From positions 1 through 39,997 of the IMG/VR virus record IMGVR_UViG_3300049215_000227: a DNA stretch of 39,997 nt; one strand, written 5' to 3'. Source of the stretch: a virus (lineage: Duplodnaviria > Heunggongvirae > Uroviricota > Caudoviricetes). Each line of letters begins with the position of its first letter. Position 1 is the first letter of the stretch. Below, piece by piece: positions 1 to 26,448 of the stretch. The notes under the pieces are model-generated. The model was not told where the DNA came from. It worked only from the letters and a program-made list of their open reading frames with translations, and searched no databases. A program made the position numbers and the translations under genes.

Positions 1-3000
1 TTATGACCGTTAGTGGTTGCACTGGAGATAGCTCTAGCAGCAACATAATACGTACCAGCAACTGGCGTTAGCGTTTGACCAGTTGCCACAACGTAGGTAG
101 TACTGGTCGTACTTAAGATAGAAGTTCCAGTTACTCTGCTATTAGGAATAGATACAGCATGAGTATGGTCAGCCATAGCAAAGTTATTAGAAGTACCAAT
201 CGTATTAGTCGTTGCGGTAGAAATCGAAATAGCCGACGCGAAGACAACTTGATTGCTTAAGAACGTTCTGTGATCCGTTATTGATGTAATGGTAGAAGCA
301 CCAGTCGTGTATACAGCGATAGGTACAGAGTTTGCTGGAGCTTGAGCAATAGCTCCACCGTCAGTAACAACACCAGAAGTGTTAACGTATACTCTGCCGT
401 TAGTTACGTTGGCACCTAGCGTTATGTTGCCAGCAGTTATAGAATAGAACGTTCCATTGATACGAACGCGACCTGCCGTGTAGTTGAGAACTAAGCCACC
501 GCCATTTGTAGGAACAAGTTCGCTAGGTCCAAACGTAGTATCAACAGTAAACGTTCCAGAAACGTCACTAACCGTGACACCGGTACCGTTGGCAAACGTC
601 AAGTCACCAAATTCTTGAGATCCGGCGTTGGCCTTAACAGAGTGAACACCTTTATGGACGTGGTCAGCGCGCACGAAGCTGGTAGAAGTACCAGTTGCGT
701 TAGCAGCTCCAACGTCGGTAGGAGTTGCGACGCTGAACGTGTGAATGTGGTCAGCACGAGCAAACGTAGAGGCAGATCCATCGGCTGCAGCAGCTGCAAT
801 CGTCTGGTTAGCAGGTGCCGCAGTAGGCACGTTATGGATATGGTCTTGCTGAGCAAAGGCTGCAGCAGTTCCCTGAGTGTTGCCGGCATTAGGCGTCAAC
901 GCGCTAGGAGCACCAGTTGGAATATTATGAACGTGGTCAGCTCTTGCAAAGTTGGCAGAAGTGCCAGCCGCATTAGCTTGGTTAGGCGTTTGGTTAGTTG
1001 GTGCGCCGCTTGCAATCGCATGAGTATGATCCTGCTGAGCAAAAGCTGCAGCAGTCCCCTGAGTGTTCGTGCTATTTGCATTCAAGCCAGAAGCTATGCC
1101 AGTAGGGATATTGTGAACGTGGTCCGCTCTTGCAAAGCTGGTCGACGCACCCTGAGCATTAGATTGGTTAGGTGTTTGAGTCGTTGCTATCGTAGTAGGG
1201 ATATTGTGAACGTGGTCCGCTCTTGCAAAGTTAATTGACGTGCCAGTAGCATTAACTTGATCAGGATTCTGAGTTGACGCCGGTCCTGACGCAATTGCGT
1301 GCGTGTGGTCTTGCTGAGCGAAGGCTGACGCCGATCCCTGCGTGTTGGTGCTGCCAGCATTCAAGCCAGACGCAATACCTGTAGGAATGTTGTGAGCGTG
1401 GTCAGCTCTTGCAAAACTTACAGAAACACCGATAGCGTTAGGTTGGTTAGGTGTTTGAGTAGAAGCTGCAGCAGACGAGATCGAATGTGTGTGGTCAGCT
1501 CTTGCAAAACTAGTCGACGCACCCTGACCATTCGTGCTGTTAGCGTTTAAGCCTACAGCAGTTCCAGTTGGAATGTTGTGGATATGGTCTGCGCGAGCAA
1601 ATCCAGCAGCCGAACCAGGGGCGTTAAGTTGATCAGTATTCTGCGTTACAGGTGTTCCCACCGTAATTAGGTGAGTATGGTCCGCTCTTGCAAAGCTGGT
1701 CGACGCACCCTGAGTATTAGTTGAATTGCTGTCCAACGTTACTGCGGCCGCAGTTGGAATGTTGTGGACATGGTCAGCACGAGCTAAGTTTGCAGAGGTT
1801 CCGACAGCGTTAGACTGATCAGGATTTTGGGTGATAGGGGCCGCAGTTGGGATAGCGTCTGCTCCACCCGGCTGATGCCTAGAAGCGTGAGCTTCTACGT
1901 GAACACCGTTAGCGGTTCCAAGGTTCGTGATGTTGTGCGTTCCCAAGTTGAAGTCACCGGTCGCAACGTGCGTTCCGTCACCTCTCCAGTATTGAGGATG
2001 GTCGTCGCCGACTGTCAACCCCAGCAAGTTGGAGTGGAACGTTGTAGCAGCAACAGTAGAAACTCGCTTAGAAGAGATGATTGGTCGCTCATCTCTCACC
2101 TCAATGATATTCGTAGCTCCTTGCTGAACAATGATGGAAGCGATCAGCGTCACACCTTCAGACAAAAAGTTTGGGGGATTAGGCAGTGATCCTTGCTCAG
2201 CTAAAGTTAGAACACTATATTCTTGCTGAGAATAAACTAAGAAATACTTCTCGCTGTCAAAGTCTCCAGTGGAATCACCGATGATATATAAAGAGTGCTT
2301 AGCGTAATAACCAGCGGTGAGAGGAGCAAGAGTTCCAGTACCGTTATCATAGTTAGCATTATCTACCGTGTTTTGTCCAGGAACATTGGTGTACCCGCCT
2401 GAACCGTTTTGGTAAAACTCAGTGAACGTGATTGGAGTTCCACCGTTAGCTAGGTAGTTTCTCTCGCCGTAGTAGTATGATCCCGGTGTTACGCTCAGCT
2501 CGCGCGTGCCGGTTTCTGCGGCGACAGAACCGCTAACGTATACTGCGCCAAGACCACTTCTCAACGCGCGACCGATCTCACTTCCTGCATGCATGCTCAA
2601 GAAGCCAGATTCGTCAATAATCATGACGTCTGTAGTGTTAGATACTACTCGACCCACTACAATGTATTGGGTAGTGTCCGGCAGCGTCGTGTTTGCTTGC
2701 AGCGTAGCCGTCGCATCAAAATATAAGTAAACGGATGAGTTTGGAGAAGCTGTGTAAGGAGTATCTGGCCACGTCACCTTATGAAGCGATCCATCTGCGC
2801 TGTGCAGATAGCCGTAGCCAGCAGCAACATTAACAGTGAGACCGCTGACAGGAGGATTGATATCTCCTTCAGATAGCAAGCCAACTGCAGAGGAGTTAGT
2901 AGTTAAAGTGCTAACATCTGTAAAGCTACCGTCTGGTTGAAACTGCTTAACCTTGCCGCTGACAACAACATCACCGTCTTCAAGTCCCAAAATGACAAAG

Positions 3001-4499
3001 CCAAACTGCGTAGCTGCTGGATTGATGTAAACGTTAACGTCGTCATTAGCACCGCACGCAATGCCGCCTTGAGTACCAGGATGATTGACGCGCAGGTCGT
3101 GAGCATTGTCGGTAAACAGAACGATGCCAGCAAGAATAGTAGGTGCTGCACCCACGTTCTCAACTAACATACCCTCTGTAAAGCCAATGACGTCAGCAGA
3201 GGTCGCGCGAATCAAGCCGCCATTTCTAACTCTGAAACCGTTTCCTCCGCCGCCAACTACACCGGTGCGAGCAACTGAGCTCTTAACGCTCATCTCGCAT
3301 CCTGCGCCGTCGCAAACGAACATGTCGACAGGATAAGGAGATGTCATCTTTGTGGATGTAGAGTTTCTTAACACTACGCGTCCATAAGTAGATCCGGTCG
3401 TGCGGGCAACGAAACCAGTGTTGAACTGATAGCCATCGCCATAGCGAGCGCTATTAATGAAGATGTTGGAGTATGAGCTAGTACCGTCAGCAATAACTAG
3501 AGTATCAGCAGAACCAAATCTTACGTCTTCAACCCAAAAAGCACTTTGAGGAGTGCTAGAGGTGTTTGCAAGATAGATGAGTGCCTTGCCAGCAGTTACT
3601 AAGCCAGTGAGTACGCAACCAGAGATGCCAGAATTGTCGCATCCTACCACTAAATGGTTGGTGTTGTCGGCAGCTTGAATTATCGTTGAGTCTAAGCCGA
3701 AGCCAATCACGTACACGTATGGCTTCATAACGATCTGAGGCTCTACGAATACTCCTGGACCGACATAGATAGCAAACGGGTTAGAAGAAGAAGCAGTAGT
3801 AACGGCTGCGATAGCTGCCGCAACAGAAGAGTACTCTGCGGATCCTGGATTGAGCTTGACGCGAAGGACGTTTTGATCTGGGATCTTAACGCCGTCAATC
3901 TGCAGAACGTTCGTAAGTGAGTTTCCGCCGAGGCTCAAGTCACCCGTCATCGCGCGACGGCCGTCGATGTGCACGTACTGCGTGTGATCGTCAGCAGGAG
4001 CAACTAGGTGAGACAAGGTGCGGTGGTCAAGACCAACGATGTCAGGTGCAGTTATGCTCTTCCATTCAGCGTTAGCTAGGTCGTTTCGAGCGCAAACCCA
4101 AACTTCGTTACTAGACGAGTTTGTCCAGATGGAGCCAACGGAGTATCCCTGAGAGATGTCGTCAGCGATCGTAGGATCAGATCCGGTGAAGTTGTTCTTG
4201 ATGAGAACGCGCCACTGAGCTACGCCAGTACCAGCGTCAACGCAAGTAAACTCAGTGCGAGTCGCAGTGTTAACCCAACGCGAACCGGGAACATAGCCGA
4301 GCGTGTTGTCGTCAGAAGGCAGCGGATCTCTGGTTGCAGTGAAGTTGTTAGTTTCACCTAAGCTATCAAGATCGCGCCACACGAGTTGACCAGCCGTACT
4401 CTTCGTCAAGGCCGTATGGTTAGAGGCCTCAGTAAAGCCCTTAGGTACGTGAATCTCTGCCTGATCTGTTAGCTGTGAGTGGATATTGTTGCCAGCCAT
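1..4499 (-). CDS. Very large fibre/spike protein (>1499 aa, 3' end outside window): N-terminal duplicated domain, pectin-lyase-like beta-helix region, His-x-His repeat shaft
   Basis: Absent from the ORF track, probably because its stop lies outside the window. Manual translation from ATG 4499 gives MAGNNIHSQLTDQAEIHVPKGF..., YSSVAAAIAAVTTASSSNPFAIYVGPGVFVE (beta-helix/pectinesterase-like start), then FARADHxH repeats. The frame is the same at position 3 (...TLTPVAGTYYVAARAISSATTNGH). Not every internal codon was checked. Confidence 0.85.
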   Translation of the reverse strand, partial: MAGNNIHSQLTDQAEIHVPKGFTEASNHTALTKSTAGQLVWRDLDSLGETNNFTATRDPLPSDDNTLGYVPGSRWVNTATRTEFTCVDAGTGVAQWRVLIKNNFTGSDPTIADDISQGYSVGSIWTNSSSNEVWVCARNDLANAEWKSITAPDIVGLDHRTLSHLVAPADDHTQYVHIDGRRAMTGDLSLGGNSLTNVLQIDGVKIPDQNVLRVKLNPGSAEYSSVAAAIAAVTTASSSNPFAIYVGPGVFVEPQIVMKPYVYVIGFGLDSTIIQAADNTNHLVVGCDNSGISGCVLTGLVTAGKALIYLANTSSTPQSAFWVEDVRFGSADTLVIADGTSSYSNIFINSARYGDGYQFNTGFVARTTGSTYGRVVLRNSTSTKMTSPYPVDMFVCDGAGCEMSVKSSVARTGVVGGGGNGFRVRNGGLIRATSADVIGFTEGMLVENVGAAPTILAGIVLFTDNAHDLRVNHPGTQGGIACGANDDVNVYINPAATQFGFVILGLEDGDVVVSGKVKQFQPDGSFTDVSTLTTNSSAVGLLSEGDINPPVSGLTVNVAAGYGYLHSADGSLHKVTWPDTPYTASPNSSVYLYFDATATLQANTTLPDTTQYIVVGRVVSNTTDVMIIDESGFLSMHAGSEIGRALRSGLGAVYVSGSVAAETGTRELSVTPGSYYYGERNYLANGGTPITFTEFYQNGSGGYTNVPGQNTVDNANYDNGTGTLAPLTAGYYAKHSLYIIGDSTGDFDSEKYFLVYSQQEYSVLTLAEQGSLPNPPNFLSEGVTLIASIIVQQGATNIIEVRDERPIISSKRVSTVAATTFHSNLLGLTVGDDHPQYWRGDGTHVATGDFNLGTHNITNLGTANGVHVEAHASRHQPGGADAIPTAAPITQNPDQSNAVGTSANLARADHVHNIPTAAAVTLDSNSTNTQGASTSFARADHTHLITVGTPVTQNTDQLNAPGSAAGFARADHIHNIPTGTAVGLNANSTNGQGASTSFARADHTHSISSAAASTQTPNQPNAIGVSVSFARADHAHNIPTGIASGLNAGSTNTQGSASAFAQQDHTHAIASGPASTQNPDQVNATGTSINFARADHVHNIPTTIATTQTPNQSNAQGASTSFARADHVHNIPTGIASGLNANSTNTQGTAAAFAQQDHTHAIASGAPTNQTPNQANAAGTSANFARADHVHNIPTGAPSALTPNAGNTQGTAAAFAQQDHIHNVPTAAPANQTIAAAAADGSASTFARADHIHTFSVATPTDVGAANATGTSTSFVRADHVHKGVHSVKANAGSQEFGDLTFANGTGVTVSDVSGTFTVDTTFGPSELVPTNGGGLVLNYTAGRVRINGTFYSITAGNITLGANVTNGRVYVNTSGVVTDGGAIAQAPANSVPIAVYTTGASTITSITDHRTFLSNQVVFASAISISTATTNTIGTSNNFAMADHTHAVSIPNSRVTGTSILSTTSTTYVVATGQTLTPVAGTYYVAARAISSATTNGH
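650..1860 (-). repeat. 13 tandem ~31-aa repeats (F-A-R/Q-A/Q-D-H-x-H) in the fibre gene
   Basis: Asp-His codons (gtggtc/atggtc/atgatc on + strand) at 660, 747, 840, 933, 1026, 1119, 1212, 1305, 1398, 1491, 1584, 1677 and 1770: a 93-nt period except one 87-nt step. An isolated extra copy lies near 165. Confidence 0.95.
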
Positions 4500-5126: not shown

Positions 5127-6101
5127 TTAGAAGCCGTAGTCGTCGCGCTTGGAATCGTTAACCTTGATTGAGGCCCAATAGGCTTGCTCTTCCTCTTCGG
5201 AGGCGAACCTTGCGCTGATCGGCTTTTGAGCTTCAATGAGCCAGTTGTTGATGGCGCCGCCCCACTGCTGATCTTGCTTTTCAAGAGCTTGCTCGTTAAC
5301 TCCGAACATGCGCTCACCGGCCTTAATCATCTCTTCAGAGCTAGGCGTCCTAGCATGCATCATGTTCTTACTAGCCATTAAGTTAGTGAGTTGAGCTAAA
5401 GCGGCATCCTCACCTGGAACTGCTGGGTTAGTGACTTGAAGTTTCTGCACTTCTTGGTCAGCGTTAGGAACGCTTCCGTGAGTAACCCATGGAGTGCCTT
5501 CAGCCGTCTTCTTGAGCTTTCTAGCCTCATTGATAGCAGCAATCTGCTCTGGCGTGTACTGCTTGACTGGACCCGCCGCGCCCTTAGGCGTTTTTTGAGC
5601 GAAGGCCTTACCGTGAGTGTAAGACTTAACACTCTGGTTGCCAAATCTCTCAGTCCCAACATTAGTTGCCTTTCGACGAGCATTAGCTGCTGGATCGTAC
5701 TGACCGCCGCCTTTAGGACCATAGCCCGACTTATCCATGTCCTCATTCTTACCGACAGACATAGGATCAAGGTTGTGCATGCCGACGTCGCCTGGTTGAA
5801 GCGTACCGATGTAGTTTTTGATCTTGATGCCTGCTGCGCCAGCAGAATCAGCTCTGCCGACTGAGCGACCACCGTGAGTGATCTGGTAATAGCCGTCAGG
5901 ATGCTTCGTTGTGCTGATGACGCCGTGCGTGCTGTGATGGAACGCCCCAGTGCTTGGATCCTGCGACCAGCCAGCACCGAGCGCGTTCACTGGCCTTCTG
6001 GTCGACGCGACGTTCGTCGCCGTCAAGGCCTTCTTCAGCTGTGTGAGCCTATCAATAAGTTCATCACACTTCTGTAACGTCTTGTCCGTCTTCTTGCTCA
6101 T
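5127..6101 (-). CDS. Hypothetical protein, putative internal head protein
   Basis: 324-aa ORF in the head cluster with LKKA, MDKS and MIKA motifs and Gly/His-rich low complexity. Confidence 0.7.
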   Translation of the reverse strand: MSKKTDKTLQKCDELIDRLTQLKKALTATNVASTRRPVNALGAGWSQDPSTGAFHHSTHGVISTTKHPDGYYQITHGGRSVGRADSAGAAGIKIKNYIGTLQPGDVGMHNLDPMSVGKNEDMDKSGYGPKGGGQYDPAANARRKATNVGTERFGNQSVKSYTHGKAFAQKTPKGAAGPVKQYTPEQIAAINEARKLKKTAEGTPWVTHGSVPNADQEVQKLQVTNPAVPGEDAALAQLTNLMASKNMMHARTPSSEEMIKAGERMFGVNEQALEKQDQQWGGAINNWLIEAQKPISARFASEEEEQAYWASIKVNDSKRDDYGF

Positions 6102-7278
6102 ACTCTTCGTCCTCTGACTTCTTAAGTGGCTTCTTGGCAGGCGGTTTCTTAGCTTCCGCTAGCTTATGCTTGTGCTTCTCTTGGGAGAGTTGATCTTTTT
6201 GCTTAGCTTGCTGCTTGATCTGAGCTTCCATAAGCTTCAAGCGAAGCTCGTGCTCCCTCTCCTTGAACTCAAGCTCAAGATCGATCTCGCGCTTGCGAGC
6301 TTGGATTTCAGCTCTCTTCGCTTCAAGTTCTAACTTAGCAATCTCAGCTTGCACCTTCTTGTCGGCCTCTGGATCGCCAGATTGTCCCTTCTTCTGAGCA
6401 CCTTCGTACTCCAAATCCATCATGCGCTTGCGATGATTCTTCTCGTAGTCCGTATCTGGAGCAGCCTTCTTAGCGTTCTCATACTCAAGATCGAGCATGC
6501 GCTGACGATGGTTCTTGTCTAGCTCAGGATCGGGAGCAGAGATCTTGGCGTTCTGATACTCCAACTCCTGCATGCGCTTCTTATGCTCAAGTTCCAATTG
6601 CTGAGCTCTATCCTTAGATTGACGCTCATGCTCTGACTTCTTCTGAGCGAGTTGATGCTCAAGATCAAACTTCTTCTTAGCATTTTCAACTTCAACCTCG
6701 GACATAGCCTTGGTTGCGTCAGCCTTGGCTGCCTTAGTCTCATCAATCTCTGGAGCGTGATGTCCATGAACGATGTAAGCAATCTCTTGAGGAGAGTAGC
6801 CCGCTTCTTCTAAGGCCGCTTTGAGTTCTTCTGGATCAGCTCCGCCTTGTTCGTCGCCTTCTTGTGCGCCTTCCGATTCGTCAGGAAGTTGAGATCCATC
6901 GTCCTCTCCGACTCCTGATTGATCATCCATTGGCGCTTCTTCACTAGCTTCTTCATCGCCTTCCTCTTGGTCCGGTTGATCCATTTCATCCGCCGGGCCC
7001 GTAGAATTTTCAACCTCTGAGTCGTCCCCAGGGATTTCCGCAGCGACAGGTTCGCCTTCAGGAGATTGCTCCTCCTGCATGTCCTGTTCATCCTCGTCAG
7101 GTTCCTGCTCTTCCTGGAGATCAAGGATAGCCTTCTCGTGATCGAGAGCCTTCTTGAGATCCTTCCAGCGATCCTTCAACTTCTTCTTGGGATCCTTCTT
7201 GAGCGGTTCTCTGCCTGGCACAATCTCTTCCTTGCCGTCTGCAGTAACCTCTCTAATAGCTTTATCAACCTTAGCCAT
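6064..7278 (-). CDS. Acidic, coiled-coil hypothetical protein (putative head protein)
   Basis: 404 aa: long Asp/Glu-rich N-half, three 25-aa H..RM.(D/E)LEY repeats, C-terminal coiled coil, LKKA/LKKS motifs. Confidence 0.75.
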   Translation of the reverse strand: MAKVDKAIREVTADGKEEIVPGREPLKKDPKKKLKDRWKDLKKALDHEKAILDLQEEQEPDEDEQDMQEEQSPEGEPVAAEIPGDDSEVENSTGPADEMDQPDQEEGDEEASEEAPMDDQSGVGEDDGSQLPDESEGAQEGDEQGGADPEELKAALEEAGYSPQEIAYIVHGHHAPEIDETKAAKADATKAMSEVEVENAKKKFDLEHQLAQKKSEHERQSKDRAQQLELEHKKRMQELEYQNAKISAPDPELDKNHRQRMLDLEYENAKKAAPDTDYEKNHRKRMMDLEYEGAQKKGQSGDPEADKKVQAEIAKLELEAKRAEIQARKREIDLELEFKEREHELRLKLMEAQIKQQAKQKDQLSQEKHKHKLAEAKKPPAKKPLKKSEDEEYEQEDGQDVTEV

Positions 7279-7287
7279 CTTAACCTC

Positions 7288-8235
7288 TTAGTAGCCGATC
7301 GAGTCGACCAAGAATCTCTTCTGATAGTGACCCTTAGCAGCTTCCATTTCACTTTGAATAAGCTTCTCTAAGTCAGCCAACCTGTTCTGCAGGAATAGCG
7401 GACCAGGTGTGCTCACGCTCTGGCTAGTTCCGTCAATGCCGATGCTGGTGGAATTATACGGAAACAACACTGGACCAAGAGTCGAAAGAAACTTATAAGC
7501 TGCTAAGTTTTCAATGAGCGCAACTAACAACGCTGGAACTCTGTGCTTCTCAAAGCCGGCTCTATACTTGACGAACACAGCGCCAGGCCAGTAGGAGATA
7601 GCTTGCGAGTTGAACGCGTGGTATCCCAAGCCAGAGTAAATGCTGATGATGAAGCCAGAGATAGTTACACCTTGAGCTGGAACGATTTGAACTGTGCCGT
7701 CCTGAGGCTGCACGTGGATGAACTCGAGCGGGATGTCGACGAGCGGTAACGATCCAGGAATACCGATTCCGTTGTTGAACGTAAGCTGATAACGCTCAAC
7801 GTTCAAGATCGGCGAGTGGTGTACCTTAAGGTAACCGAAAGCCCAGAACTGCATCTCGCGAGAGTAGTCGTGTCTCTCCTCGAACGTCACCGGAGTGATG
7901 TACAAATCGAGAGTGTGCTCAATCTCAGATATAGCTTCCGTGATGTAACGCTCGAGCGTATCATCTGTAACTTCTTGCCCAGTGAGATACGACTTCAACG
8001 GAAGACCAAACAGAGGTCCCGTCTTCATTGTTGCTGGCGTTGGGACAGGAAGGTAGCGCTTGAAGCCTTCTTCTTGCTTAGTACTCCAAGAGGGAAAAGG
8101 CTGAACGGTAGGCGTCCTGACGATGCCAGTGCCCTGCACGTTGCCAGTGATGAACTGGTCAGCAGCTAAATCTTCAAATAGTCCGTCTGGCGTTTGACCG
8201 CCATTATCGTTTGGGTTATTTCCGTCGTTACTCAT
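7288..8235 (-). CDS. Head-tail adaptor / neck (head completion) protein
   Basis: Motifs TDDTLERYITEAISEIEHTL, YRAGF..VPALL and SIGIDGTSQS resemble adaptor proteins downstream of SPO1/Twort-type capsid genes. Start reassigned to ATG 8235 behind an AGGAGG Shine-Dalgarno. Confidence 0.65.
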   Translation of the reverse strand: MSNDGNNPNDNGGQTPDGLFEDLAADQFITGNVQGTGIVRTPTVQPFPSWSTKQEEGFKRYLPVPTPATMKTGPLFGLPLKSYLTGQEVTDDTLERYITEAISEIEHTLDLYITPVTFEERHDYSREMQFWAFGYLKVHHSPILNVERYQLTFNNGIGIPGSLPLVDIPLEFIHVQPQDGTVQIVPAQGVTISGFIISIYSGLGYHAFNSQAISYWPGAVFVKYRAGFEKHRVPALLVALIENLAAYKFLSTLGPVLFPYNSTSIGIDGTSQSVSTPGPLFLQNRLADLEKLIQSEMEAAKGHYQKRFLVDSIGY

Positions 8236-9880
8236 TACTACCTCCTTCAGGCTTAGGTACCTTAGGCGCATGTACTTGCTTGAAGGTGTCTATTCTCTTC
8301 ATTCTATCAGCTACTTCCGGTGGGTGCTTAGCCACTAGGGAATGTATATCTGGCTTGGATATCGGTGCCGCTTTCTGCTGCTGAAACTTCTTAGCTCCAA
8401 CTCTGAGCTCGTGCGGGATCTGATCCTGCGCTCTCATCGCTGTCTGCTGCAATCCGCGAATCTTGTTCCCAGCGTGCGTGGCGAACGACGCCTGACTTGG
8501 ATGATCGTGATTGTAGTCATTGATAGCCTGCATAAGTCCATGCATCCCTGCTTCATGAAGCATCCCAAGGTCAACATCGCCCTTCTTGTGGTCAAGGCCA
8601 AGCTTGTTGAGAACCTTGTGAGCACTCATAGCGATCAGCGGGTGATATTTCTGGAAGAAGGCATCAACTTTAGCTTTCTTAGCAGGATCCTTAAGTGAAG
8701 GATGCTCACCAAGCACGCGCTGAACATCTGCTTTCGAACCTTCATCATAGTTTGCCATCTCCTCGAGATTCGCTGGCTTCTTAGCCTTCTTCTCGTAGTC
8801 CTTACCGTATTGCTCAAGGAATGCCTTGTTGCCTGCGGCAAAAGATGACGATGGGTCTTGGGTCATAGAACCAACAGTTCCCTCTTCACCTTTAGTTCCG
8901 CCAGCGTGCTGCAGAGCTTCCTCAGTAGACATAGGAGTCTCAGCTTGCGCTCCGCCAGTGAGAACGTGTCTGATCGCCTCGTCTTTAGCAGCTGCATGAA
9001 CATCCTTAGCGCCGAGTCCCTTCTTATGGGCCTCGCTATGGATCTTTGCTGCGTTTGCTAAGTAGTCAGGATTCTGCTTGTGCCAGTCGCTCTCGAACTT
9101 ACTGTCCATCTCCATCTGAGTGATTGGATCAGCACCTTGATACTCTGGAGAAGCTTGCATAGCAGCATAAGCATCTTGATGAGCTTTGTGCGCAGTATTG
9201 CGAGCTTCAACTAGCTTACCTTCATGGTGCAGAACTGGGTTCTTGTGAGCTTCAGCCTCAAGACGCGTCTTCTCGCGAGCTCTCTGCTCCCAAGGACGAG
9301 TGTACTGGCGCATCTCCGCAATGTCTTCCCTTGACGGCTGCGGAAATCTGCCCTCGCTTACTGGGGCTTCTTTGGCTGGCGCTTGCGGCGCGACTTCAAC
9401 TGGACTACCTTCTGCTCCACCTTCTGGACTTCCTTCTTCTCCCACAGGTTCAGCTTCTGCAGCAGGCTCTTCATCCAGTTCAGGCTCTTGCTGATGAGAC
9501 TCTTCATCTTCATCAGGACCATATTCTTCATAGTATTTAGGTTCATCTTCGTCTTCCTCCGTTGACCTCTGTGGGTCGTGTTCCTGCAGCCACTTGTCTG
9601 CATCGTCGCCCTCTTCAGGGTCGAACTCTCTAAAACCTTGTTCTTCTAGATTTTCCCCCTCGTCATCTGGATCGGAAGGTTCATCGGATAGACGTCTGCG
9701 AGCCTTTAACAAAACGGCTTCAAGTGCTTCAAAATCTTCGGACTTAGTCATCTTCTGGTAGATGCTGTTGACAAGAGCCCAGTAGCGATCGCCATCAGAC
9801 TCGGAAAGAGTCTTGTTCGCTGCCTTCTTGGCCTTTGACCAACGAGCTTCATCTGCTGGAGTTTTAATGAACGCTGGCAT
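8228..9880 (-). CDS. Low-complexity protein with a C-terminal sigma-70 region-2-like domain (no region 4)
   Basis: FQKYHPLIAMSAHKVL...DLGMLHEAGMHGLMQAINDYN...ASFATHAGNKIRGLQQTAMR matches the FliA/sigma-28-type region-2 pattern (PLV..IA...DDLIQAG.IGL..A...YD......F.TYA..RIRG). Confidence 0.7.
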   Translation of the reverse strand: MPAFIKTPADEARWSKAKKAANKTLSESDGDRYWALVNSIYQKMTKSEDFEALEAVLLKARRRLSDEPSDPDDEGENLEEQGFREFDPEEGDDADKWLQEHDPQRSTEEDEDEPKYYEEYGPDEDEESHQQEPELDEEPAAEAEPVGEEGSPEGGAEGSPVEVAPQAPAKEAPVSEGRFPQPSREDIAEMRQYTRPWEQRAREKTRLEAEAHKNPVLHHEGKLVEARNTAHKAHQDAYAAMQASPEYQGADPITQMEMDSKFESDWHKQNPDYLANAAKIHSEAHKKGLGAKDVHAAAKDEAIRHVLTGGAQAETPMSTEEALQHAGGTKGEEGTVGSMTQDPSSSFAAGNKAFLEQYGKDYEKKAKKPANLEEMANYDEGSKADVQRVLGEHPSLKDPAKKAKVDAFFQKYHPLIAMSAHKVLNKLGLDHKKGDVDLGMLHEAGMHGLMQAINDYNHDHPSQASFATHAGNKIRGLQQTAMRAQDQIPHELRVGAKKFQQQKAAPISKPDIHSLVAKHPPEVADRMKRIDTFKQVHAPKVPKPEGGSNE

Positions 9881-11073
9881 TACTTCTTCTTGCCTTTCGC
9901 TGCGTGCTCATGAATTGCAGCCTTCAAGTCGTCTGGGATTTGACTCCAGATCTTGTCGTCCATAGGAGAACCTTCTGGCGGCTTGCTCAAGTCCATAGTA
10001 GGCTTAGATGCCTGCGCTTTTGGAGCTGGAGCAGCAACTTCCGCTTGCTTAGGTGCTTCTGCCTTTGGAGCAGGAGCTTCGGCGGGCGCAGCCGCAGGAA
10101 CGGCTTTGTGGTGAGGCATCTCTGTAAGAGGAATTCCCTCGTACACGTGACCAGGCTTCTTAGTTCCGCGAGCCTTATAAGCTTCTGGATCAGCTGCGTG
10201 CTTTGCCTTCTGATCAGCCAGCCACTTCTTGTGATGCTCAGAATCCGCCCAACCAGAGAGACCAGCGTTAATCGCTTCATGATGCTCTGGTCCAAGCTCG
10301 TGCTGAGGCACGTCAGCGTGCTGATGAACGGGGTGAGCGTCAAACGGATGCGGCACATACTCTTTCACTTCGCCAACATCTTCAATAGGCAAGTATGCTT
10401 GACCAGCATCGCGCTTCATTGGAGATCCAAGTTGAACCTCCTCGAAGGGATATCCGCCTTTGTGAGGCATCTTTTCAACAGCAGTATGACCAGGATGTGG
10501 TGGCATCTCAAGGTAGCGATAGTCAGGAACAGCTCTTGGATTTCTCTCGCGGTTAGCGTTTGGAGCTGGACGACGACCGAGATCCTTGGTGCCTTCCTTG
10601 AGCTTGCCATTGTGAGCGTGACGCTCTGTTCCAGTGTAGTTTGTTTCCCACGGAGTCATGCTTGGATAATCAAGCGTAAGATTGCCACCAGAGTGCTTGC
10701 TAGCTCTTCCAGCTAGATGCATCAGGGGAACGATCTTGTTGAGATGCTGATCTGCGATGCCGCGAAGCTTTGCCTTCTCCTTGGGATCAGTAGCAGCATG
10801 ATGTGCCTTTAGCGCACCTTGATAGTGAGAGATGTGGTGACCAAGTGCATCACGAAGTTGTTCAACGTGAACAGGCTTCATACCTGCCGCATATGACGTG
10901 ATGGCGTGGTTTGCGCCACGACCCATCGCCGCAGAAGGTTCAGCCATCTTTAGCAACGCCTCGACAACCTCCTCAGCAATGAGGTCATCTTTAGCGTACT
11001 TGATCAATGTCTGTAAGTAGGGATTGCCATCCGCCTTTTTAAGAAGGATTTCCCTGAAACTCTTGAGTTCCAT
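9880..11073 (-). CDS. Hypothetical protein, putative internal head protein
   Basis: 397 aa, His/Pro/Ala-rich, with N-terminal ELKS/LLKKA motifs; translationally coupled to the sigma-R2 gene. Confidence 0.7.
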   Translation of the reverse strand: MELKSFREILLKKADGNPYLQTLIKYAKDDLIAEEVVEALLKMAEPSAAMGRGANHAITSYAAGMKPVHVEQLRDALGHHISHYQGALKAHHAATDPKEKAKLRGIADQHLNKIVPLMHLAGRASKHSGGNLTLDYPSMTPWETNYTGTERHAHNGKLKEGTKDLGRRPAPNANRERNPRAVPDYRYLEMPPHPGHTAVEKMPHKGGYPFEEVQLGSPMKRDAGQAYLPIEDVGEVKEYVPHPFDAHPVHQHADVPQHELGPEHHEAINAGLSGWADSEHHKKWLADQKAKHAADPEAYKARGTKKPGHVYEGIPLTEMPHHKAVPAAAPAEAPAPKAEAPKQAEVAAPAPKAQASKPTMDLSKPPEGSPMDDKIWSQIPDDLKAAIHEHAAKGKKK

Positions 11074-11085
11074 GAGAGACTCCTA

Positions 11086-11454
11086 TTAAGGCGATTCACC
11101 AGTTCCAACAGGCTCATTAAGGAGGTTGAAAGGATTAGGTTGTAGTCTTGGGCGGTCTACGTCTCTTGCAACCTGAACAAACGCGGACGCGGCGCCGATC
11201 ACAACAGTAATCGTGTTGAGACCAGTATCCTTCGTGCTGCCCGTTCCGGTGTTGAAGAGCATTATCTCGCCAGAACTCATCGTCGCAGCAAGAACGCCGT
11301 CAATGGTGACAGTAGTAGCGCCGGTAGCCCTTACCCTGAACGTAGTCCATTTAGGAAGAACTAGGGTACCAGTATTATTGGTGATTTGCTCTTCCCACAG
11401 TAGAGCTGTCTCTGCAACTCTTAAATTTTCGCTTACGACGTTGGATGTTTTCAT
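11086..11454 (-). CDS. Small beta-rich hypothetical protein, possible capsid decoration protein
   Basis: 122 aa, Thr/Val-rich, AGGAG Shine-Dalgarno, own GGTATAAT box at 11483-11490. Confidence 0.65.
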   Translation of the reverse strand: MKTSNVVSENLRVAETALLWEEQITNNTGTLVLPKWTTFRVRATGATTVTIDGVLAATMSSGEIMLFNTGTGSTKDTGLNTITVVIGAASAFVQVARDVDRPRLQPNPFNLLNEPVGTGESP

Positions 11455-11482: not shown

Positions 11483-11490
11483 ATTATACC
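11483..11490 (-). promoter_or_regulatory. -10 element GGTATAAT
   Basis: attatacc on + strand in the intergenic gap upstream of the 11454 gene. Confidence 0.6.
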
Positions 11491-13769: not shown

Positions 13770-13776
13770 ATTATAC
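13770..13776 (-). promoter_or_regulatory. -10 element GTATAAT 6 nt before the tmk ATG (leaderless)
   Basis: GTATAAT-TCCTTC-ATG; no Shine-Dalgarno. Confidence 0.65.
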
Positions 13777-14504: not shown

Positions 14505-15950
14505 TTATTTACCGATGTTACGGAACAAGCAGTTGAAGCGTGGGGTGTACACGAACAACGCACCGTACATAACGATCGCGAACTCAAGAGCGGTCGTCAC
14601 AATCGCGAAGTTGATCTTCGAGAGAGGAGCGAGCTGCTTGAAGCGCATGCACTCAGCGCTCATATCGAGCAAGAATGCTTCGCCAAGTCCTGGGAGTTGA
14701 GCATTAGCACTGATGTAGTTACCTGCACCAGCGTTTGCCCAGTTACCAGCAAACTTCTCAGTTCCAGCAGCGCCGCCAGCAGCGGAGATGTAGAACTTCC
14801 AGTACTTAACGCCAGCAGGCACGGAACCGATTGCAACAGTGATGTTGCTTGCGGAAGCGAGCACGCAGTCAGCGGAAGATACTGGCGAAGATTCACCAGA
14901 GTCATTCACAGCCGTAACCTTCACCTTATAGGTACCAGCTGCGAAGCCAGATCCTGAACCAGCGGAGGTTGCAGTTGCCGTGAAGGTAGCTGCAGGGCTT
15001 TGCGCATTAACAGCAAGCGAGCGAACGCCGCTGCGAGGACGCAAGAAGAGGTTTGGCTTGAGGTCGATCGCGCCAGCGGTGGTTTGCACCTTGGACACGT
15101 CGTAGCCAACCGTTTGGTTAGCAAGACCAGGAGCCGAACGGAACTGAGGATAGAACTGCTTCACGAAGGCCGAGAGAGCGGCTGGTTCGATGTGCAACTG
15201 ATCCGGAGCGCCGAAGTTTTCAAGAGCGATAACAGCAAGACGTTCGATGTCGTCTTGAGCCATCACTTGACCAGCGAGGTCAGCCTGGATAGAGCTGGAG
15301 TCGCCATATCCAAGGAAGTCACCGGCTTGCATTTGAGCATCGGTGTCGCCCTTTTGGAGCTGCTTCAACAGACCGCTCATCGCGATGCTGTTCACTGGAA
15401 GGTCGGCATCAGAACCGGTTTCAGCGCCAGTGGACTGATTCATGAAGTGAGCATGACCCCAATAGAGCTCGCGCTCGATATTCTTGAGGAGATGCATCGT
15501 GCCTTCTTTTGCCTGTTGAGCAACGATGTCGCCAACAGTGACACGGACGAGAGTCATCTGGTGAGAGACCCTACGGCGAGTGCCGAAGAACACGATCTTC
15601 TGACCGTCACGTACGTAGGTCGAATCTTCCTCTTGAGGAGCTCCGCCTTCGCCGATGTACGGAACAGAATCAGAACCGTAGCTGATCAAACGGTTGTACT
15701 GTTCGAATAGGTTGTATGCTTTGTCAACCGAGATGGCTGGCCAGAACTTGAGGTTCTTCATGTCGAAGGTGATGCTCTTGAGGGTAGCCTCGAGAGATTC
15801 AGCCTGCAACACACCACCATAAGTGAGGTCAGTTGGCTTACCAGCACCACCGTAACCGGCGGTGATAGCCTTATTCAGTGACTCGATGTCCGATGCGGAA
15901 ACGAGACCCTGATCGAGGCCTTGCAAAACTTGATTAATTGCGTCGTTCAT
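14505..15950 (-). CDS. Major capsid protein (SPO1/Twort-like HK97 fold) with Ig/FN3-like insertion
   Basis: N-terminal NKAITAGYG...LQAESLEATLKSITF, EQYNR and EGGAP motifs of Herelleviridae-type capsids; TYKVKVTAVNDSGES; position after protease and scaffold; terminator downstream. Confidence 0.92.
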   Translation of the reverse strand: MNDAINQVLQGLDQGLVSASDIESLNKAITAGYGGAGKPTDLTYGGVLQAESLEATLKSITFDMKNLKFWPAISVDKAYNLFEQYNRLISYGSDSVPYIGEGGAPQEEDSTYVRDGQKIVFFGTRRRVSHQMTLVRVTVGDIVAQQAKEGTMHLLKNIERELYWGHAHFMNQSTGAETGSDADLPVNSIAMSGLLKQLQKGDTDAQMQAGDFLGYGDSSSIQADLAGQVMAQDDIERLAVIALENFGAPDQLHIEPAALSAFVKQFYPQFRSAPGLANQTVGYDVSKVQTTAGAIDLKPNLFLRPRSGVRSLAVNAQSPAATFTATATSAGSGSGFAAGTYKVKVTAVNDSGESSPVSSADCVLASASNITVAIGSVPAGVKYWKFYISAAGGAAGTEKFAGNWANAGAGNYISANAQLPGLGEAFLLDMSAECMRFKQLAPLSKINFAIVTTALEFAIVMYGALFVYTPRFNCLFRNIGK

Positions 15951-15968: not shown

Positions 15969-16865
15969 TTACGAAATCTTGTATTTGGCTGCGATCTTTG
16001 CGAGATCTTGTCCCATTTCAGCTCTGGTGATATCCAGAGAGTCAACCTTGGTTCCAGACTTCTTCAGCTCAAAGAGCTTGGAAGCAACATCTGCTTTGGA
16101 AAGAGGTTCGCCACCGTCTTCATCGCTCTTGCGAAGAGGAACAGCATTAGCGGTCACGCCCTTAGCAGGAACAGGTTGATCTGCAATCTTGTTAACGAGA
16201 TTGAGAATCGTGGACAGCTTGTCTTCGAGAGGCTTTACTCTCTCTTCAACAAAGCTCTTCATCAATGCTTCAGTCTCTTCTTGGGACTTCTTCAGTCCAT
16301 GCATAACAAGCTTTTGAACGTCAGCGTCGACTTCTTCAGGACTTTTGTTCTCGCCCTTTTTCATTCCAGCGAGATCTGCGAGCTTACCAATAGCCTTCTT
16401 TTCTTCGGCTTCATGGCGCTCTCCGCCCTTAGCGTCCTTGTTCTTTTTCTTCTTGTCGTCTTCGTCTTCGTCGTCGGCCTTAGCAACCTTATGCTGGGTT
16501 TCACCAGGATCAGATTCGCTGTTCTTGCCGCTCATGTCACGCTTCTTACCTTCGTGAGAACCGTGCTCAGGACCTTGTCCGTGTTCCATGCCTTCACCAG
16601 CAACTGGCTTGTGCTTGCCACCATCTGGATCAGACTGACGATTGTGGCCTTCTGCCTTTTCAGCATCTTCGCCTTCGTCTTCGTCCTTGTCTTTGTCTTC
16701 CTTCTTAGCGTGCAAGTCGCCATTAGAAGGCTTGCCGGCGATTCCTTCGCCCGGACCTTTAACTTCGATCTCAGCAGCACTGAAGCGAGACTTCTTAAGC
16801 TCTTCAAGCTCGAGAAGCGTCTCGTCGATCAGGTCTGTGAGGCTCTTTCTTAGTTCCTCTTTCAT
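15969..16865 (-). CDS. Capsid scaffolding protein
   Basis: Highly charged 298-aa protein directly upstream of the capsid gene with about ten K-[S/A/G] sites. Confidence 0.7.
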   Translation of the reverse strand: MKEELRKSLTDLIDETLLELEELKKSRFSAAEIEVKGPGEGIAGKPSNGDLHAKKEDKDKDEDEGEDAEKAEGHNRQSDPDGGKHKPVAGEGMEHGQGPEHGSHEGKKRDMSGKNSESDPGETQHKVAKADDEDEDDKKKKNKDAKGGERHEAEEKKAIGKLADLAGMKKGENKSPEEVDADVQKLVMHGLKKSQEETEALMKSFVEERVKPLEDKLSTILNLVNKIADQPVPAKGVTANAVPLRKSDEDGGEPLSKADVASKLFELKKSGTKVDSLDITRAEMGQDLAKIAAKYKIS

Positions 16866-17384: not shown

Positions 17385-19067
17385 CTATGTTGCTATTGCT
17401 CCTAAGAACAACTTATGTAGCTTCTCCATAGGAAAAGATTTGCCACAATCTCTACACTTGACTTGGTATTTAGAGTAAATCTGCTCCTTACCACAGTCAT
17501 CGCAAGTTACGTATTTAAAGCTGCCTCTACCGTCATCCAGCGACTCAGCTTGCAGAACGCCGCCCCCGGTATTAGCGGTTGGGACGCCAGCCCCGCCGTA
17601 TCCAGCTGATAATGCTTTCTTAAGATGCTTCTTTGCGTGCACCTTAGCTTTAGCCGGTGGAAGTAGCTTCTTATAAGCTTCAACGACCTTCTTGACATAA
17701 TCAGAGTCATTAATGCCGCTAGGGCCACCCTCTTTGTATTTTTCCCAAGCACCTTTAAGTCCATGATTCCACGAATGAATAAGCATGTCTAAGTTCTTAG
17801 TCTTGTGCTTATTTCTGCTTAGCAAGGCATCCGCAAAGTCATATGCGGCTTGAGGATTGGAGTTGAAGAGGTCGGTGAACATCTTGTGGTTAGCCTTCAT
17901 ATCCTTAGCTGCTTCTGCAAACTTAGGATATTTGGCGGAGAGCTTTGGATCGTTCCTCAAGATGTAACCTGCTGCGTTAGGCATCATGCCGAACATGCCG
18001 CCAGCTACTTGGCCTGCATGCATGCTGCTCGGATCTCTGATCGCCTTATGAGCATAATTGAGACCGCCGCTAGACTCGATCTGACCGATAGCGCCGAGAA
18101 GAGGGTTTCTCTTAGCGAACTGCTTGTACATCTCTTGATGGTTGGCAGGCATCCTGGTGAGATCCATGGGATGCGCTTCCTTGAATTGAGTTTGCTGCTG
18201 AACTGTGGGAGCGGGAGCATGCGCAGTTTGAGGCGCTAACGCTGCAGCACCGGTCATCATGGCGCCAAGAGCAGCTTGCTTCAAGCCCTTCTCCATCTCC
18301 TCGTTCTTTATCTCCTCGACCAGCTCGTGGATCTTCGAGACGTTGCTCTGAATCTTAGCTTCCAAAGCGTACTGCAGGATCTCTTGCTTAGTTGGGATGT
18401 CGATGGCTGAATTGTCGCCCTTCATGAGCTCAACGATCTTCTCGATGTTGCTTCTCACCTTAGAGGCTGACGCGTCGCGAGCGATGTGACGGAACGAGGG
18501 GATGTTCGTTTCCGCAAGATGTATAACAGATTTGATCAATTCCATATCCGCTGCGTCATCGGACTGAGACTTATCAAGGTTCAGCGGTTCAACGAGCGTA
18601 GCGACGTTCGCAGGAGTAAAAGTAAGTGCGACGCTATGGATTTTTGTTCGAGCAAGAAGAGATGGATCGGAGATCCCTCTTGAAATTACTCCGCCTTCTA
18701 CGGAAGCTTTCAGTTTCAGCGGGCAATCCGTCTTATGAACATTTCTCAAAATGGCAGCGGCGGCTTTTGCATTTGGATGATCTTCATCGTCATATAAGAA
18801 GCCGCGGACATATAAGTACGGCGCCTTAACCTTGTTCCAGTAGTAGCGCTGACGGTCGTCGTCGCAATCTTCTTCCTTAAAGATTTTCTTGGCGGTAGAG
18901 ACCCTACCAATAGAGTTGAAGAAGCCCTTACCGTGGTTATCGTTTAGACGACCCTTTCCGGCAAGAAGATCTGCTATATCAGCTCCCTCAACGGAGAGCA
19001 TCTCACCCTGGGTATCCCTGAGTTGGGACCCGGCGCACATATCAATCTCAAGTGGTTTCTTAGACAT
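17385..19067 (-). CDS. Prohead protease fused to a lytic transglycosylase (SLT)-like domain, a capsid N-terminal motif copy and a Zn ribbon
   Basis: Protease motifs RDTQGE, NDNH, ASVEG, ALTFTPAN. SLT motifs AIGQIESSG, GMFGMMP, SWNHG, YVKKV. C-terminal KALSAGYGGAG..GGVLQAESL and CDDC..CRDC. Confidence 0.8.
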   Translation of the reverse strand: MSKKPLEIDMCAGSQLRDTQGEMLSVEGADIADLLAGKGRLNDNHGKGFFNSIGRVSTAKKIFKEEDCDDDRQRYYWNKVKAPYLYVRGFLYDDEDHPNAKAAAAILRNVHKTDCPLKLKASVEGGVISRGISDPSLLARTKIHSVALTFTPANVATLVEPLNLDKSQSDDAADMELIKSVIHLAETNIPSFRHIARDASASKVRSNIEKIVELMKGDNSAIDIPTKQEILQYALEAKIQSNVSKIHELVEEIKNEEMEKGLKQAALGAMMTGAAALAPQTAHAPAPTVQQQTQFKEAHPMDLTRMPANHQEMYKQFAKRNPLLGAIGQIESSGGLNYAHKAIRDPSSMHAGQVAGGMFGMMPNAAGYILRNDPKLSAKYPKFAEAAKDMKANHKMFTDLFNSNPQAAYDFADALLSRNKHKTKNLDMLIHSWNHGLKGAWEKYKEGGPSGINDSDYVKKVVEAYKKLLPPAKAKVHAKKHLKKALSAGYGGAGVPTANTGGGVLQAESLDDGRGSFKYVTCDDCGKEQIYSKYQVKCRDCGKSFPMEKLHKLFLGAIAT

Positions 19068-19095: not shown

Positions 19096-19290
19096 CTATG
19101 ATTGTTTGCGTTCTACCCGCATTTGCCAGTCTGGGCTGTGCGGCAATTCGCCGCCTACGCCACCATTGGCACTAGGATCCCACTGATAGGGAGCTATGTC
19201 GATAAAAGTTATAAAGAAGTTATTAAGGATACCAAGTTCGCTGAGCATCCTAATAAGGTTGCCTAGAACTCTAACCTTTTGCTCGGTCAT
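19096..19290 (-). CDS. Small hypothetical protein
   Basis: 64-aa ORF, ATGA-coupled to the upstream gene. Confidence 0.55.
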   Translation of the reverse strand: MTEQKVRVLGNLIRMLSELGILNNFFITFIDIAPYQWDPSANGGVGGELPHSPDWQMRVERKQS

Positions 19291-19697
19291 CGGTATATTT
19301 TGTAGTCGTCGTCAGAGAGAGATTCGCCGACAACGCTTTCGCCTTCCATGTCCTCTTTTAGGGTACGGAACTCATCCGTCTCGCGAATCTTAGCGAGAGC
19401 TATCTTCTCGGTCTTCTTGACGGCGTCCACTGACATGCAGTTTAAGGATGCGACTTCTACGTCGGAAGGAGGCTTATCGCCTGCATAGTCTTGGATGTAC
19501 TTAAAGAAGCAGTAGTTGGCCAGCTGATGGTTAACAGCCCACGGACAGCCAGGAAGCTTTGATTCTTCCTCCTCCGTGAGCTCTCTACCTGCAGTCCTTA
19601 TAGCTCTTAGCCTCATGACAGCAAGTGGACACCATTCGTTCGGTAGACACTCGAGACCCCGAGGGCATCTCTTGTCCATCTTGTTGTCATCAGACAT
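19287..19697 (-). CDS. Cys-rich protein with sigma-70 region-4-like HTH
   Basis: PSDVEVASLNCMSVDAVKKTEKIALAKIR resembles the region 4.2 pattern T..EI......S.E.VRQIE..AL.KLR; N-half has five Cys. Confidence 0.6.
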   Translation of the reverse strand: MSDDNKMDKRCPRGLECLPNEWCPLAVMRLRAIRTAGRELTEEEESKLPGCPWAVNHQLANYCFFKYIQDYAGDKPPSDVEVASLNCMSVDAVKKTEKIALAKIRETDEFRTLKEDMEGESVVGESLSDDDYKIYR

Positions 19698-25429: not shown

Positions 25430-26036
25430 TGCCGCCTACAACCTGAGCCAACAGAGTTCCTGCGTCTGTCTCTTCAGGCTTTTCCTCTTCTTTTTTGGGC
25501 TGCGGCGGGGAGAGAGCTTCGAACATCGGAGATCTCTTATCTTTAGCTGCAGGCGTAGCTCCCGAGACAATCTTATACAGGGTCTCTGCTACGTCCTTAT
25601 ATTCTTTCACACTCTCGATGCGCAACGTTGGTTTTGGGTTGTTCACCGGGTCTTGACAATATTTTATCATAGTCTCAAGATGTTCGGCATTAGTTACCGA
25701 CATCATGGCCGTAAGGAAGTCAACTTGCTCAAGAACTGACTTAACAACCTTAGCGCGAACCCTGTCTTGCAGGGTGTGCATCATCTTGTCACGGTCGTAG
25801 GCCCAACGACGAAGGGACGCAGTAAGGGCAATTTGACCTAGTTCGTATTGAGGAAACTGTTGGGCGATTTTAGGTAGTGATTCGCCGAGTAGATACAGTT
25901 CGAAGAGTTTAGCTGCTTCAAGTTCTTTAAGTGCACCTGCAGTTTTATGCTTTCTTAGGTATTTTTCAGCTAGCTTAATTTCCTCTTCGCTTAACCCGTA
26001 TCTCTCTTCATCCGTGAGTCTTTTCTTTAACGCCAT
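25410..26036 (-). CDS. Probable terminase small subunit
   Basis: HTH-like segment LFELYLLGESLPKIAQQF, helical, directly upstream of and overlapping terL; ATG 26036 preferred. The call is positional. Confidence 0.5.
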   Translation of the reverse strand: MALKKRLTDEERYGLSEEEIKLAEKYLRKHKTAGALKELEAAKLFELYLLGESLPKIAQQFPQYELGQIALTASLRRWAYDRDKMMHTLQDRVRAKVVKSVLEQVDFLTAMMSVTNAEHLETMIKYCQDPVNNPKPTLRIESVKEYKDVAETLYKIVSGATPAAKDKRSPMFEALSPPQPKKEEEKPEETDAGTLLAQVVGGNEQSDQ

Positions 26037-26448
26037 ATAATTCTTCCCAGCAATCATTCTCTCTCACTATGGAGATGACCTGCTTTATCCTTATCTCGCT
26101 GATACCTTTATACCCGCTCACTTCGGTCACCGATAGACCTAGGGCTAACAAGCATATCACGGACTGCTCTATGTCGCTAAAGTTACTTAGCAACCTTTGA
26201 AACTTTTCTGAAGGTGGGTTATTAAATACGTGCCAGAGGAGGTGCGCGATCTCGCGATCGGCTGCGTACGCTTTATTTGACTTGTTTAAGTAAGCGACGA
26301 ATGAGGACGGAGGGTTTCCACTTAGATAGTGCACCCAGAGATCTTGTCTTTGATCTTCGTTATCAGTCAGACTGTTGATTAGGCTGCTGATCAGCTTCGC
26401 CGGATCCACCTTCGACTCCAATACTATCTGTATATGCGTCGAAGTCAA
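26008..26448 (-). CDS. Minimal ECF sigma-like / HTH transcription factor
   Basis: EDQRQDLWVHYL (region-2-like) and FSDIEQSVICLLALGLSVTEVSGYKGISEIRIKQ (region-4 HTH). The true start may be GTG 26409. Confidence 0.55.
   Translation of the reverse strand: MTSTHIQIVLESKVDPAKLISSLINSLTDNEDQRQDLWVHYLSGNPPSSFVAYLNKSNKAYAADREIAHLLWHVFNNPPSEKFQRLLSNFSDIEQSVICLLALGLSVTEVSGYKGISEIRIKQVISIVRENDCWEELYGVKEKTHG

Follow-up and report, generated by a model that had tools for sequence, protein, structure and literature searches.

A FliA-derived sigma domain in a head-module protein of an uncultured tailed phage: a candidate for virion delivery

Introduction

Phages without an RNA polymerase of their own are generally assumed to begin with promoters recognized by host sigma factors. 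A gene in the head module of an uncultured tailed phage (Caudoviricetes) raises the question of whether a phage could carry a sigma factor into the cell within its own particle. The stretch analyzed, hereafter the window, is the 39,997-nucleotide (nt) segment 1-39,997 of IMG/VR record IMGVR_UViG_3300049215_000227, and is contained in G000, a complete phage record of 176,504 bases with direct terminal repeats. In the product of a minus-strand gene of this window, designated P0001, a first-pass annotation had recognized by eye a sigma region 2 of the FliA type and proposed a capsid-packaged sigma fragment, matured by protease and injected, that would redirect host RNA polymerase or act as a core-binding decoy. 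In this computational analysis the domain is confirmed, and the proposal is indirectly supported by a conserved protease-type site, a late-type promoter, two fusions with a head protein, and FliA-like putative promoters before early-type genes.

Results

Identification of a FliA-type sigma domain in P0001

The NCBIfam profile FliA_WhiG (TIGR02479) matched amino acids (aa) 409-502 of P0001 (8375-8656) along positions 2-88 of its 224 positions with an expectation value (E) of 1.6e-9, the score of 37.8 bits being far below the cut-off of 189.6. A phmmer search of PDB with aa 371-500 yielded five chains, every one a sigma factor, with Pseudomonas aeruginosa FliA at the top (E 3.2e-5) and Escherichia coli FliA at E 5.8e-4. 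The three motifs that the first-pass annotation had quoted for region 2 are present. In fold comparison of an AlphaFold2 model of P0001, the top match was SigB (Z 8.2, root-mean-square deviation [rmsd] 2.5 Å, 91 residues), and the T4 gp55 structure 7d7d aligned at Z 6.8; in most sigma rows the first helix of the carrier domain that surrounds the sigma domain (near residue 180) aligned with the helix preceding region 2. Whole-length alignments of P0001 to sigma-70 gave an rmsd above 20 Å and were disregarded. Foldseek found no PDB entry at E 0.001, although its top rows were sigma factors, and the best E in a PHROGs search with the domain was 0.13. The Pfam Sigma70_r2 search proposed earlier as a check gave nothing, either for P0001 and its parts or, with E values as high as 10 allowed, for the domain alone; the NCBIfam profile does match.

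The domain had been described as region 2 only. This holds as far as region 4 is concerned, which was detected neither in P0001, by profile or model, nor genome-wide by PF04545; with the match ending at profile position 88 of 224, the full domain 3 and the helix-turn-helix (HTH) of domain 4 are absent. At its other limit the description was too narrow, the match taking in the first region 3 helix as well. A total of 256 homologues of P0001 were identified among 4223 candidates, and none among 50,697 records of cultured phages. Both matches to named genomes, which would have pointed to Saprospiraceae and Cytophagales as hosts, are contigs in bins, one of them equal in length to phage record G003, and were not accepted as host evidence. 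Among 108 aligned homologues, the sigma domain is conserved to the same degree as the carrier. The sequence and fold matches altogether identify in P0001 a domain homologous to domain 2 of FliA, with the predicted core-binding and -10 melting helices.

Architecture of P0001

The model of P0001, built from 108 sequences (mean predicted local distance difference test score [pLDDT] 77.6, predicted template modeling score [pTM] 0.57), consists of a confidently helical leader (aa 8-64), a low-confidence linker (65-177), further confident helices (181-300, pLDDT 89-98), the sigma domain (about 400-503), and, at the C terminus, two short helices. Earlier, about 400 aa of acidic, disordered sequence had been assigned ahead of the domain. 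The acidic, low-confidence part is confined to the linker, in which Asp and Glu make up 40% of the residues, and the homologue alignment shows strong conservation of the carrier over aa 178-365.

Head-module position and candidate protease sites

The location of the gene among head genes, noted previously, was borne out: it lies between the capsid gene and a head-tail adaptor gene. The genes g122 and g397 precede it in 23 of 23 loci (some of them duplicates), and it is followed by the adaptor gene in each of the 20 loci that reach far enough. With identities of about 31% (31% for the portal, up to 32% for the capsid), the head module is of the SPO1/Mx1-like type.

The N-terminal MTKS and LLKA motifs of P0001, likened in the first-pass annotation to sites of the capsid and scaffold, are both present. 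Of the 119 homologues (out of 121) that reach 480 aa, 116 have [LM]-x-K-[SA] within the first 110 aa, against a mean of 13.4 and a maximum of 23 in shuffled sequences; beyond residue 110 there are 4 sites versus 63.9 expected. These counts come from related sequences and are therefore not independent. In each of 10 genomes the capsid protein carries an LxK-S/A site at K27-29, and the scaffold has 60 such sites across genomes versus 5.4 expected; the first 100 aa of the sheath, the tube, and three baseplate proteins have none. Cleavage is presumably after Lys, as in SPO1-like phages, for whose heads no passage on Lys-Ser cleavage turned up in the literature searched.

Two classes of promoter-like sequence

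Two classes of motif were found upstream of genes, both of which we take as putative -10-only promoters. Class I, GTATAAT, precedes virion and replication operons, including that of P0001, and has no -35 signal. In 87 of 444 sites from 11 genomes an ATG stands exactly 12 nt after its first T (2-26 at other offsets), a spacing that points to GTATAAT as a -10 box with leaderless starts. Boxes with this exact spacing are common genome-wide and include those at 13775, 23457, 35822, and 38163 (-) of the window; leaderless mRNAs may be common in this phage family, possibly a clue to its host. Class I partly resembles an extended -10 element, with T at -15 in 50% and G at -14 in 42% of sites.

Class II is a FliA-like motif, C-Y-G-A-W-N-C-K-A, ahead of small genes on the other arm of the genome. 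With a matrix trained on five genomes other than G000, 27 hits of at least 11 bits were obtained in G000, of which 22 fall within 98,180-170,932 on the plus strand; 17 of these are in non-coding DNA, which makes up 15% of the genome, and the other five are inside genes. Of the 110 genes that follow a class II motif in 11 genomes, 106 are on the non-virion strand, compared with 112 of the 287 that follow class I, and the median product lengths are 114 aa and 179 aa, respectively. From their size, arm, and content, we infer that the genes behind class II are early. Start codons peak 16 nt past the first G (10 open reading frames [ORFs]; 0-4 at the other offsets from 8 to 25), which places C-K-A near -12 to -10, in the register of the FliA C-G-A. 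The first C-Y-G-A had been considered as the FliA core; it was dropped on the grounds that G009, whose sigma keeps the residue equivalent to FliA D87, mixes C and T there and that the start spacing favors the second half. No -35 or GC extended signal accompanies class II, the upstream sequence being flat.

GCCGA, the sign of host FliA promoters, is no more frequent ahead of genes than in shuffles (5 of 111 versus 5.1), pairs of -35 and -10 boxes of the host type are few (0-5 per genome), and promoters of the FliA type, with a -35 box and GCCGATAA, were not found in this phage.

An invariant 16-base element, CTGACACTGCTACGCC, occurs in 101 viral stretches (loci L143-L243), and in G000 at 98883, 99579, 100425, 104908, and 108779 (+). 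A class II core lies within 80 nt downstream of it in 65 of 103 copies and upstream in 7 of 105, and the distances peak at 14 and 24-27 nt, a pattern that suggests a helically phased activator site. G012, G014, and G015 share the element and gave no match to P0001; G012 is rated complete.

Assignment of sigma factors to the two classes

A structural report on P. aeruginosa FliA (PMC12784957) gives its box as GCCGATAA, with A at -11 stacking on Y76 and R80 contacting -12G. For D87, biochemistry indicates a contact with -12G and the structure one with -13C; the extended GC is read by R97, and FliA contacts both the -35 and the GC extended elements. When these DNA contacts, as far as given there, were mapped onto P0001 through the phmmer alignments, Y76 corresponded to H469, R80 to K473, R82 to R475, D93 to D486, and R104 to K497; the D87 position is occupied by T480 and the R97 position by H490. 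In the 108 rows, H469 and K473 are invariant, and R475 and K497 are at least 90% conserved.

The base preceding the class II A differs with the residue at the D87 position. In five genomes whose sigma keeps Asp, 52 of 58 sites have G there; in six genomes with Thr, 46 of 77 sites have T and 12 have G. Some distant forms bear Ser at the D87 position. The FliA-type domain and class II both change between clades.

A second candidate sigma, a 128-aa protein encoded outside the window, was recognized from language-model neighbors (0.97, sigma factor; 0.96, PF04542) and from fold comparison, in which the 11 best rows are all sigma domain 2 at Z 6.4-7.8, under the caution line of 8 set by the tool. 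Searches of NCBIfam and PHROGs gave no match to its sequence, and the PDB none that was meaningful. Of the 10 relatives searched (G011 and G013 being outside this search), nine have it and the tenth is a 33% fragment; identity of the protein across the family is 57-81%. Its last helix, the recognition helix, is nearly constant over both clades, as is the GTATAAT box. The 128-aa protein is the likely reader of GTATAAT, and the earlier designation of this box as the target of P0001 is probably wrong. Of the genomes checked for class II before the operon of this second sigma, G000, G004, G006, and G008 have it clearly and G005 and G002 weakly.

Standalone and fused forms in relatives

Relatives also carry standalone FliA-like proteins of 100-134 aa. 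In G006, G007, G010, and G011 the carrier has kept its place in the head module, while the sigma domain has a gene of its own at a distance of tens of kilobases; the relocated standalone genes keep GGTATAAT in five distinct cases, and one carries GTGATAAT. In G008 the domain is fused to the C terminus of the carrier and nests among the standalone forms (support 97/95), apart from the clade of internal insertions to which P0001 belongs. In this tree of 52 rows the phage domains form one group against full-length FliA (support 100/99); the "Cterm" labels on G000 and G001 are an artefact of the labeling rule. P0172 combines a g397 homologue, the carrier, and the sigma domain in one protein of 789 aa. 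The occurrence of two fusions with the same head protein suggests that the connection of sigma with head matters.

Features of the window and other genes

The positions of the features described are listed in Table 1.

Table 1. Features of P0001, its operon, and the head module. Positions are those of the window unless another record is named.
Feature	Position	Strand	Basis or remark
Neck/adaptor-type gene downstream of P0001	7288..8271	-	phrog_772, E 8.5e-29 (labeled tail fiber); phrog_442 head-tail adaptor, E 9.7e-5
P0001 gene, 550-aa head-module protein with FliA-derived sigma domain	8228..9880	-	ORF; 256 homologues; conserved position
C-terminal helices, aa 512-537, part of carrier; sigma domain inserted ahead of them	8270..8347	-	
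Sigma region 2 and first helix of region 3, aa ~400-503, without region 4	8372..8683	-	Profile, PDB, model, fold match
Conserved helical carrier domain, aa 178-365	8786..9349	-	Homologue alignment, model; in split relatives a head-module protein by itself
Acidic low-confidence linker, aa 65-177, net charge -40	9350..9688	-	Model, composition
Helical leader, aa 1-64; predicted removal in head	9689..9880	-	Partly optional among homologues
LLKA, aa 57-60, predicted head-protease site	9701..9712	-	K59 invariant in 108 aligned homologues
MTKS, aa 44-47, second predicted head-protease site	9740..9751	-	In homologues with long leader
g397, constant upstream neighbor	9880..11073	-	Fused to P0001 homologue in P0172
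g122, first gene of operon	11086..11454	-	
Class I box GTATAAT heading the g122-g397-P0001 operon	11483..11489	-	Present in 6 of 6 genomes examined
Major capsid protein, SPO1/Mx1-like	14505..15950	-	LxK-A site at K27
Probable scaffold	15969..16865	-	Label from position and composition; 7 LxK-S/A sites (0.71 expected)
Head maturation protease, putative cutter of LxK-S/A sites	17385..19067	-	phrog_1028, E 6.4e-11
Second region-2-only sigma-like gene, 128 aa	G000 168124-168510 (L025:4124-4510)	+	Language model, fold

Several further observations were made on the head module and its surroundings. The C-terminal part of the protease copies the N-terminal arm of the capsid protein just past an LxK-A site (LKKALSAGYGG versus LNKAITAGYGG), and this arm may anchor the protease in the shell. 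N-terminal LxK-S/A sites also occur in the products of 5127-6101, 6064-7278, and 37591-38151 (-) of the window and of 118431-119153 and 90961-92520 (-) of G000, which are probable head cargo; the last of them resembles by eye a NUDIX protein. A long gene at about 40-4460 (-), apparently crossing the start of the record, has by eye many short ARADH-type repeats and is probably a fiber gene. A conserved small protein encoded before the terminase genes (26008-26448 [-], seven loci) has a C-terminal HTH with a weak Sigma70_r4/HTH lead (0.90-0.91) and is possibly a gp33-like co-activator. A conserved Cys-rich protein with an HTH-like C terminus but no family match is encoded before the protease gene (19287-19697 [-]). 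In G000, 34 tRNA genes were called, and GroEL-like, ThyX-like, and subtilase-like genes were recognized by eye.

Discussion

Proposed mechanism

The best reading of these results, which we hold as somewhat better than an even chance, is that P0001 is a late-made sigma that would be packaged, trimmed by the head protease, and injected for the early genes; packaging, injection, and timing are the inferred parts. P0001 would be made late, behind GTATAAT of the virion-operon class; its leader would bring it into the prohead, where the head protease would cut at K59 (LxK-A). Upon ejection together with the DNA it would bind the beta-prime clamp helices of the host core polymerase, a contact modeled on sigma domain 2 and gp55, and the P0001-bound core would open the predicted early promoters of class II, which have no -35 box. 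One early operon would then yield the 128-aa sigma, which would turn on replication and virion genes behind GTATAAT, the operon of P0001 included, and so close the loop. Since P0001 is under a promoter of the virion class while the promoters that match it best head early-type genes, delivery in the particle is the simplest closure.

A wider claim, tentative and not favored, is that infection throughout the phage family begins with an injected mini sigma. Under this scheme a captured FliA domain 2 would ride on a protease-matured carrier that supplies a region-1.2-like helix, private early promoters would be helped by the phased 16-mer, and a two-step cascade of region-2-only sigmas would run without host sigma.

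A number of observations weigh against the injected-sigma reading. The helix of region 3 is modeled with low confidence (pLDDT 52). The class II pattern was originally picked with G000 in view, and class II is weak in G004 and G005. The link between residue and base is essentially one contrast between two clades, and a prediction set beforehand for held-out genomes was partly borne out: in G013 (Thr) the base was A in 5, G in 3, T in 3, and C in 1 site, mostly not G yet not mostly T, and in G011 (Asp) there were just 4 class II sites, 2 of them with G. Class II before the operon of the second sigma was not established in G001 and G003, G001 having a class I box 137 nt upstream. The host primary sigma might read class I from the start of infection. 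An RpoD-like sigma of 228-229 aa, which stops before the region 4.2 helix, is encoded in G006 (74437-75123), G007 (34734-35420), and G011 (98315-99004), near the helicase gene in G006 and G007; it is absent from G000, and the cascade may differ within the family. The standalone mini-sigmas of G006, G007, G009, G010, and G011 have by eye no leader or LxK site and would need a different way into the head. Finally, LxK-S/A is not exclusive to head proteins (25 sites versus 6.9 expected in terminase, 7 versus 1.7 in thymidylate kinase), and alone is therefore no proof of packaging.

Alternative explanations

Much of the above would also fit a class II sigma that is not delivered by the virion, in which case the host primary sigma would read GTATAAT first, P0001 would be made in the cell, and the fusion to a head protein would be incidental. 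All the evidence on promoters and sigma is compatible with this explanation, to which the partial TGnTATAAT character of class I, the class I genes on the non-virion strand (112 of 287), and the lack of a packaging leader in the standalone forms lend weight. It is the strongest of the alternatives, yet we consider it unlikely: capsid genes would be expressed from the first minute, the conserved second sigma would be left without a target, and the two head-protein fusions, the retained N-terminal site, and the avoidance of internal sites would go unexplained; moreover, in the Herelleviridae phage described in PMC12282133, extended -10 boxes without -35 mark late genes. An improbable variant keeps the packaging and gives up promoter reading, the domain acting as a decoy that occupies the beta-prime clamp helices or titrates an anti-sigma and so shuts off host transcription. 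The lack of region 4 and of a sigma finger, the replacement of R97 by H490 and of D87 by Thr, and an acidic stretch that could mimic DNA would suit a decoy; the conservation of DNA-facing positions and the existence of a FliA-like motif class, one base of which shifts with D87/Thr, would not.

The roles of the two candidate sigmas could be exchanged, with P0001 serving GTATAAT as a late sigma in the manner of gp55 and class II being read by the 128-aa protein or a host sigma. P0001 does belong to a late operon, the -10-only class GTATAAT is real, and the pairing of sigma with box is an indirect assignment; but with its own operon behind GTATAAT, P0001 would have to precede itself, and its recognition helix varies between clades while GTATAAT is constant, the reverse of what is seen for the 128-aa protein. 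This exchange is a slim prospect. Slimmer still is the prospect of a domain that has degenerated to a remnant within a structural head protein, with class II read by host FliA. P0175 and P0166, distant members of the family in which the FliA match is no longer detectable, and the failure of Pfam would be in accord with decay; the domain is, however, as conserved as its carrier, and class II has neither the -35 nor the GC extended signal, both of which FliA contacts.

If the injected-sigma reading is true, early transcription would be freed from the state of the host sigma and from defenses aimed at that state. It is testable without an isolate, both candidate sigmas and both promoter consensus sequences being named. 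A sigma of about 100 residues whose -10 box is shifted would, in addition, offer a compact tool for orthogonal transcription and a natural test of the residues that read the -10 element.

Comparison with known systems

P0001 belongs to none of the systems compared here: it differs from FliA in domains and promoters, and its packaging is a prediction. A literature search, with most subscription journals and supplements beyond its reach, found no packaged sigma. In SigO-RsoA of Bacillus subtilis, a split sigma, a region-2-only polypeptide works as part of sigma. In G000, PF04545 finds no region 4 partner, the candidates for one being the weak Sigma70_r4/HTH lead at 26008-26448 and perhaps 19287-19697 of the window; unlike in a split sigma, neither promoter class has a -35 box.

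With FliA/WhiG (sigma-28, group 3 of the sigma-70 family; TIGR02479; PMC12784957), P0001 shares a homologous domain 2 and first helix of domain 3, the positions for -11A stacking, for -12, and for the template strand being kept or conservatively changed, and the class II core C-G/T-A resembles C-G-A-T. It differs by lacking the rest of domain 3, the sigma finger, and domain 4 and by being embedded in a head-module protein; class II differs by the missing -35 box and the extra upstream C-Y-G-A element. T4 gp55, which acts with gp33 and gp45, likewise lets the host core use -10-only promoters through a domain of region 2 homology, but is synthesized in the cell and is used for late genes (PMC7892883), whereas P0001 is FliA-derived and is predicted to have early-type targets and virion delivery; the 128-aa protein is the closer analogue of gp55. 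As in a minimal phage sigma, region 2 without region 4 is found in P0001 together with a -10-only promoter class in the genome.

Myxococcus phage Mx1 and the SPO1-like Herelleviridae have the nearest cultured head module, and the head proteins of Mx1 are also rich in LxK-S/A; Mx1 differs in having a separate annotated sigma beside the helicase. In the Herelleviridae phage studied in PMC12282133, early genes use host SigA promoters with a -35 box.

In its predicted delivery P0001 is similar to injected head cargo, its gene being in the head module under late-type control and its N terminus carrying a motif of the capsid and scaffold. T4 Alt is packaged in the head, is injected, and turns host polymerase to phage DNA, and cargo-head fusions are known, but Alt modifies the polymerase enzymatically (PMC5512222); the word sigma is absent from the main text of this survey of head cargo. 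The virion RNA polymerases of N4 and phiKZ provide another parallel, the machinery for early transcription arriving with the DNA (PMC12282133 and PMC7824862); there a whole polymerase is carried, whereas P0001 would supply the specificity subunit only.

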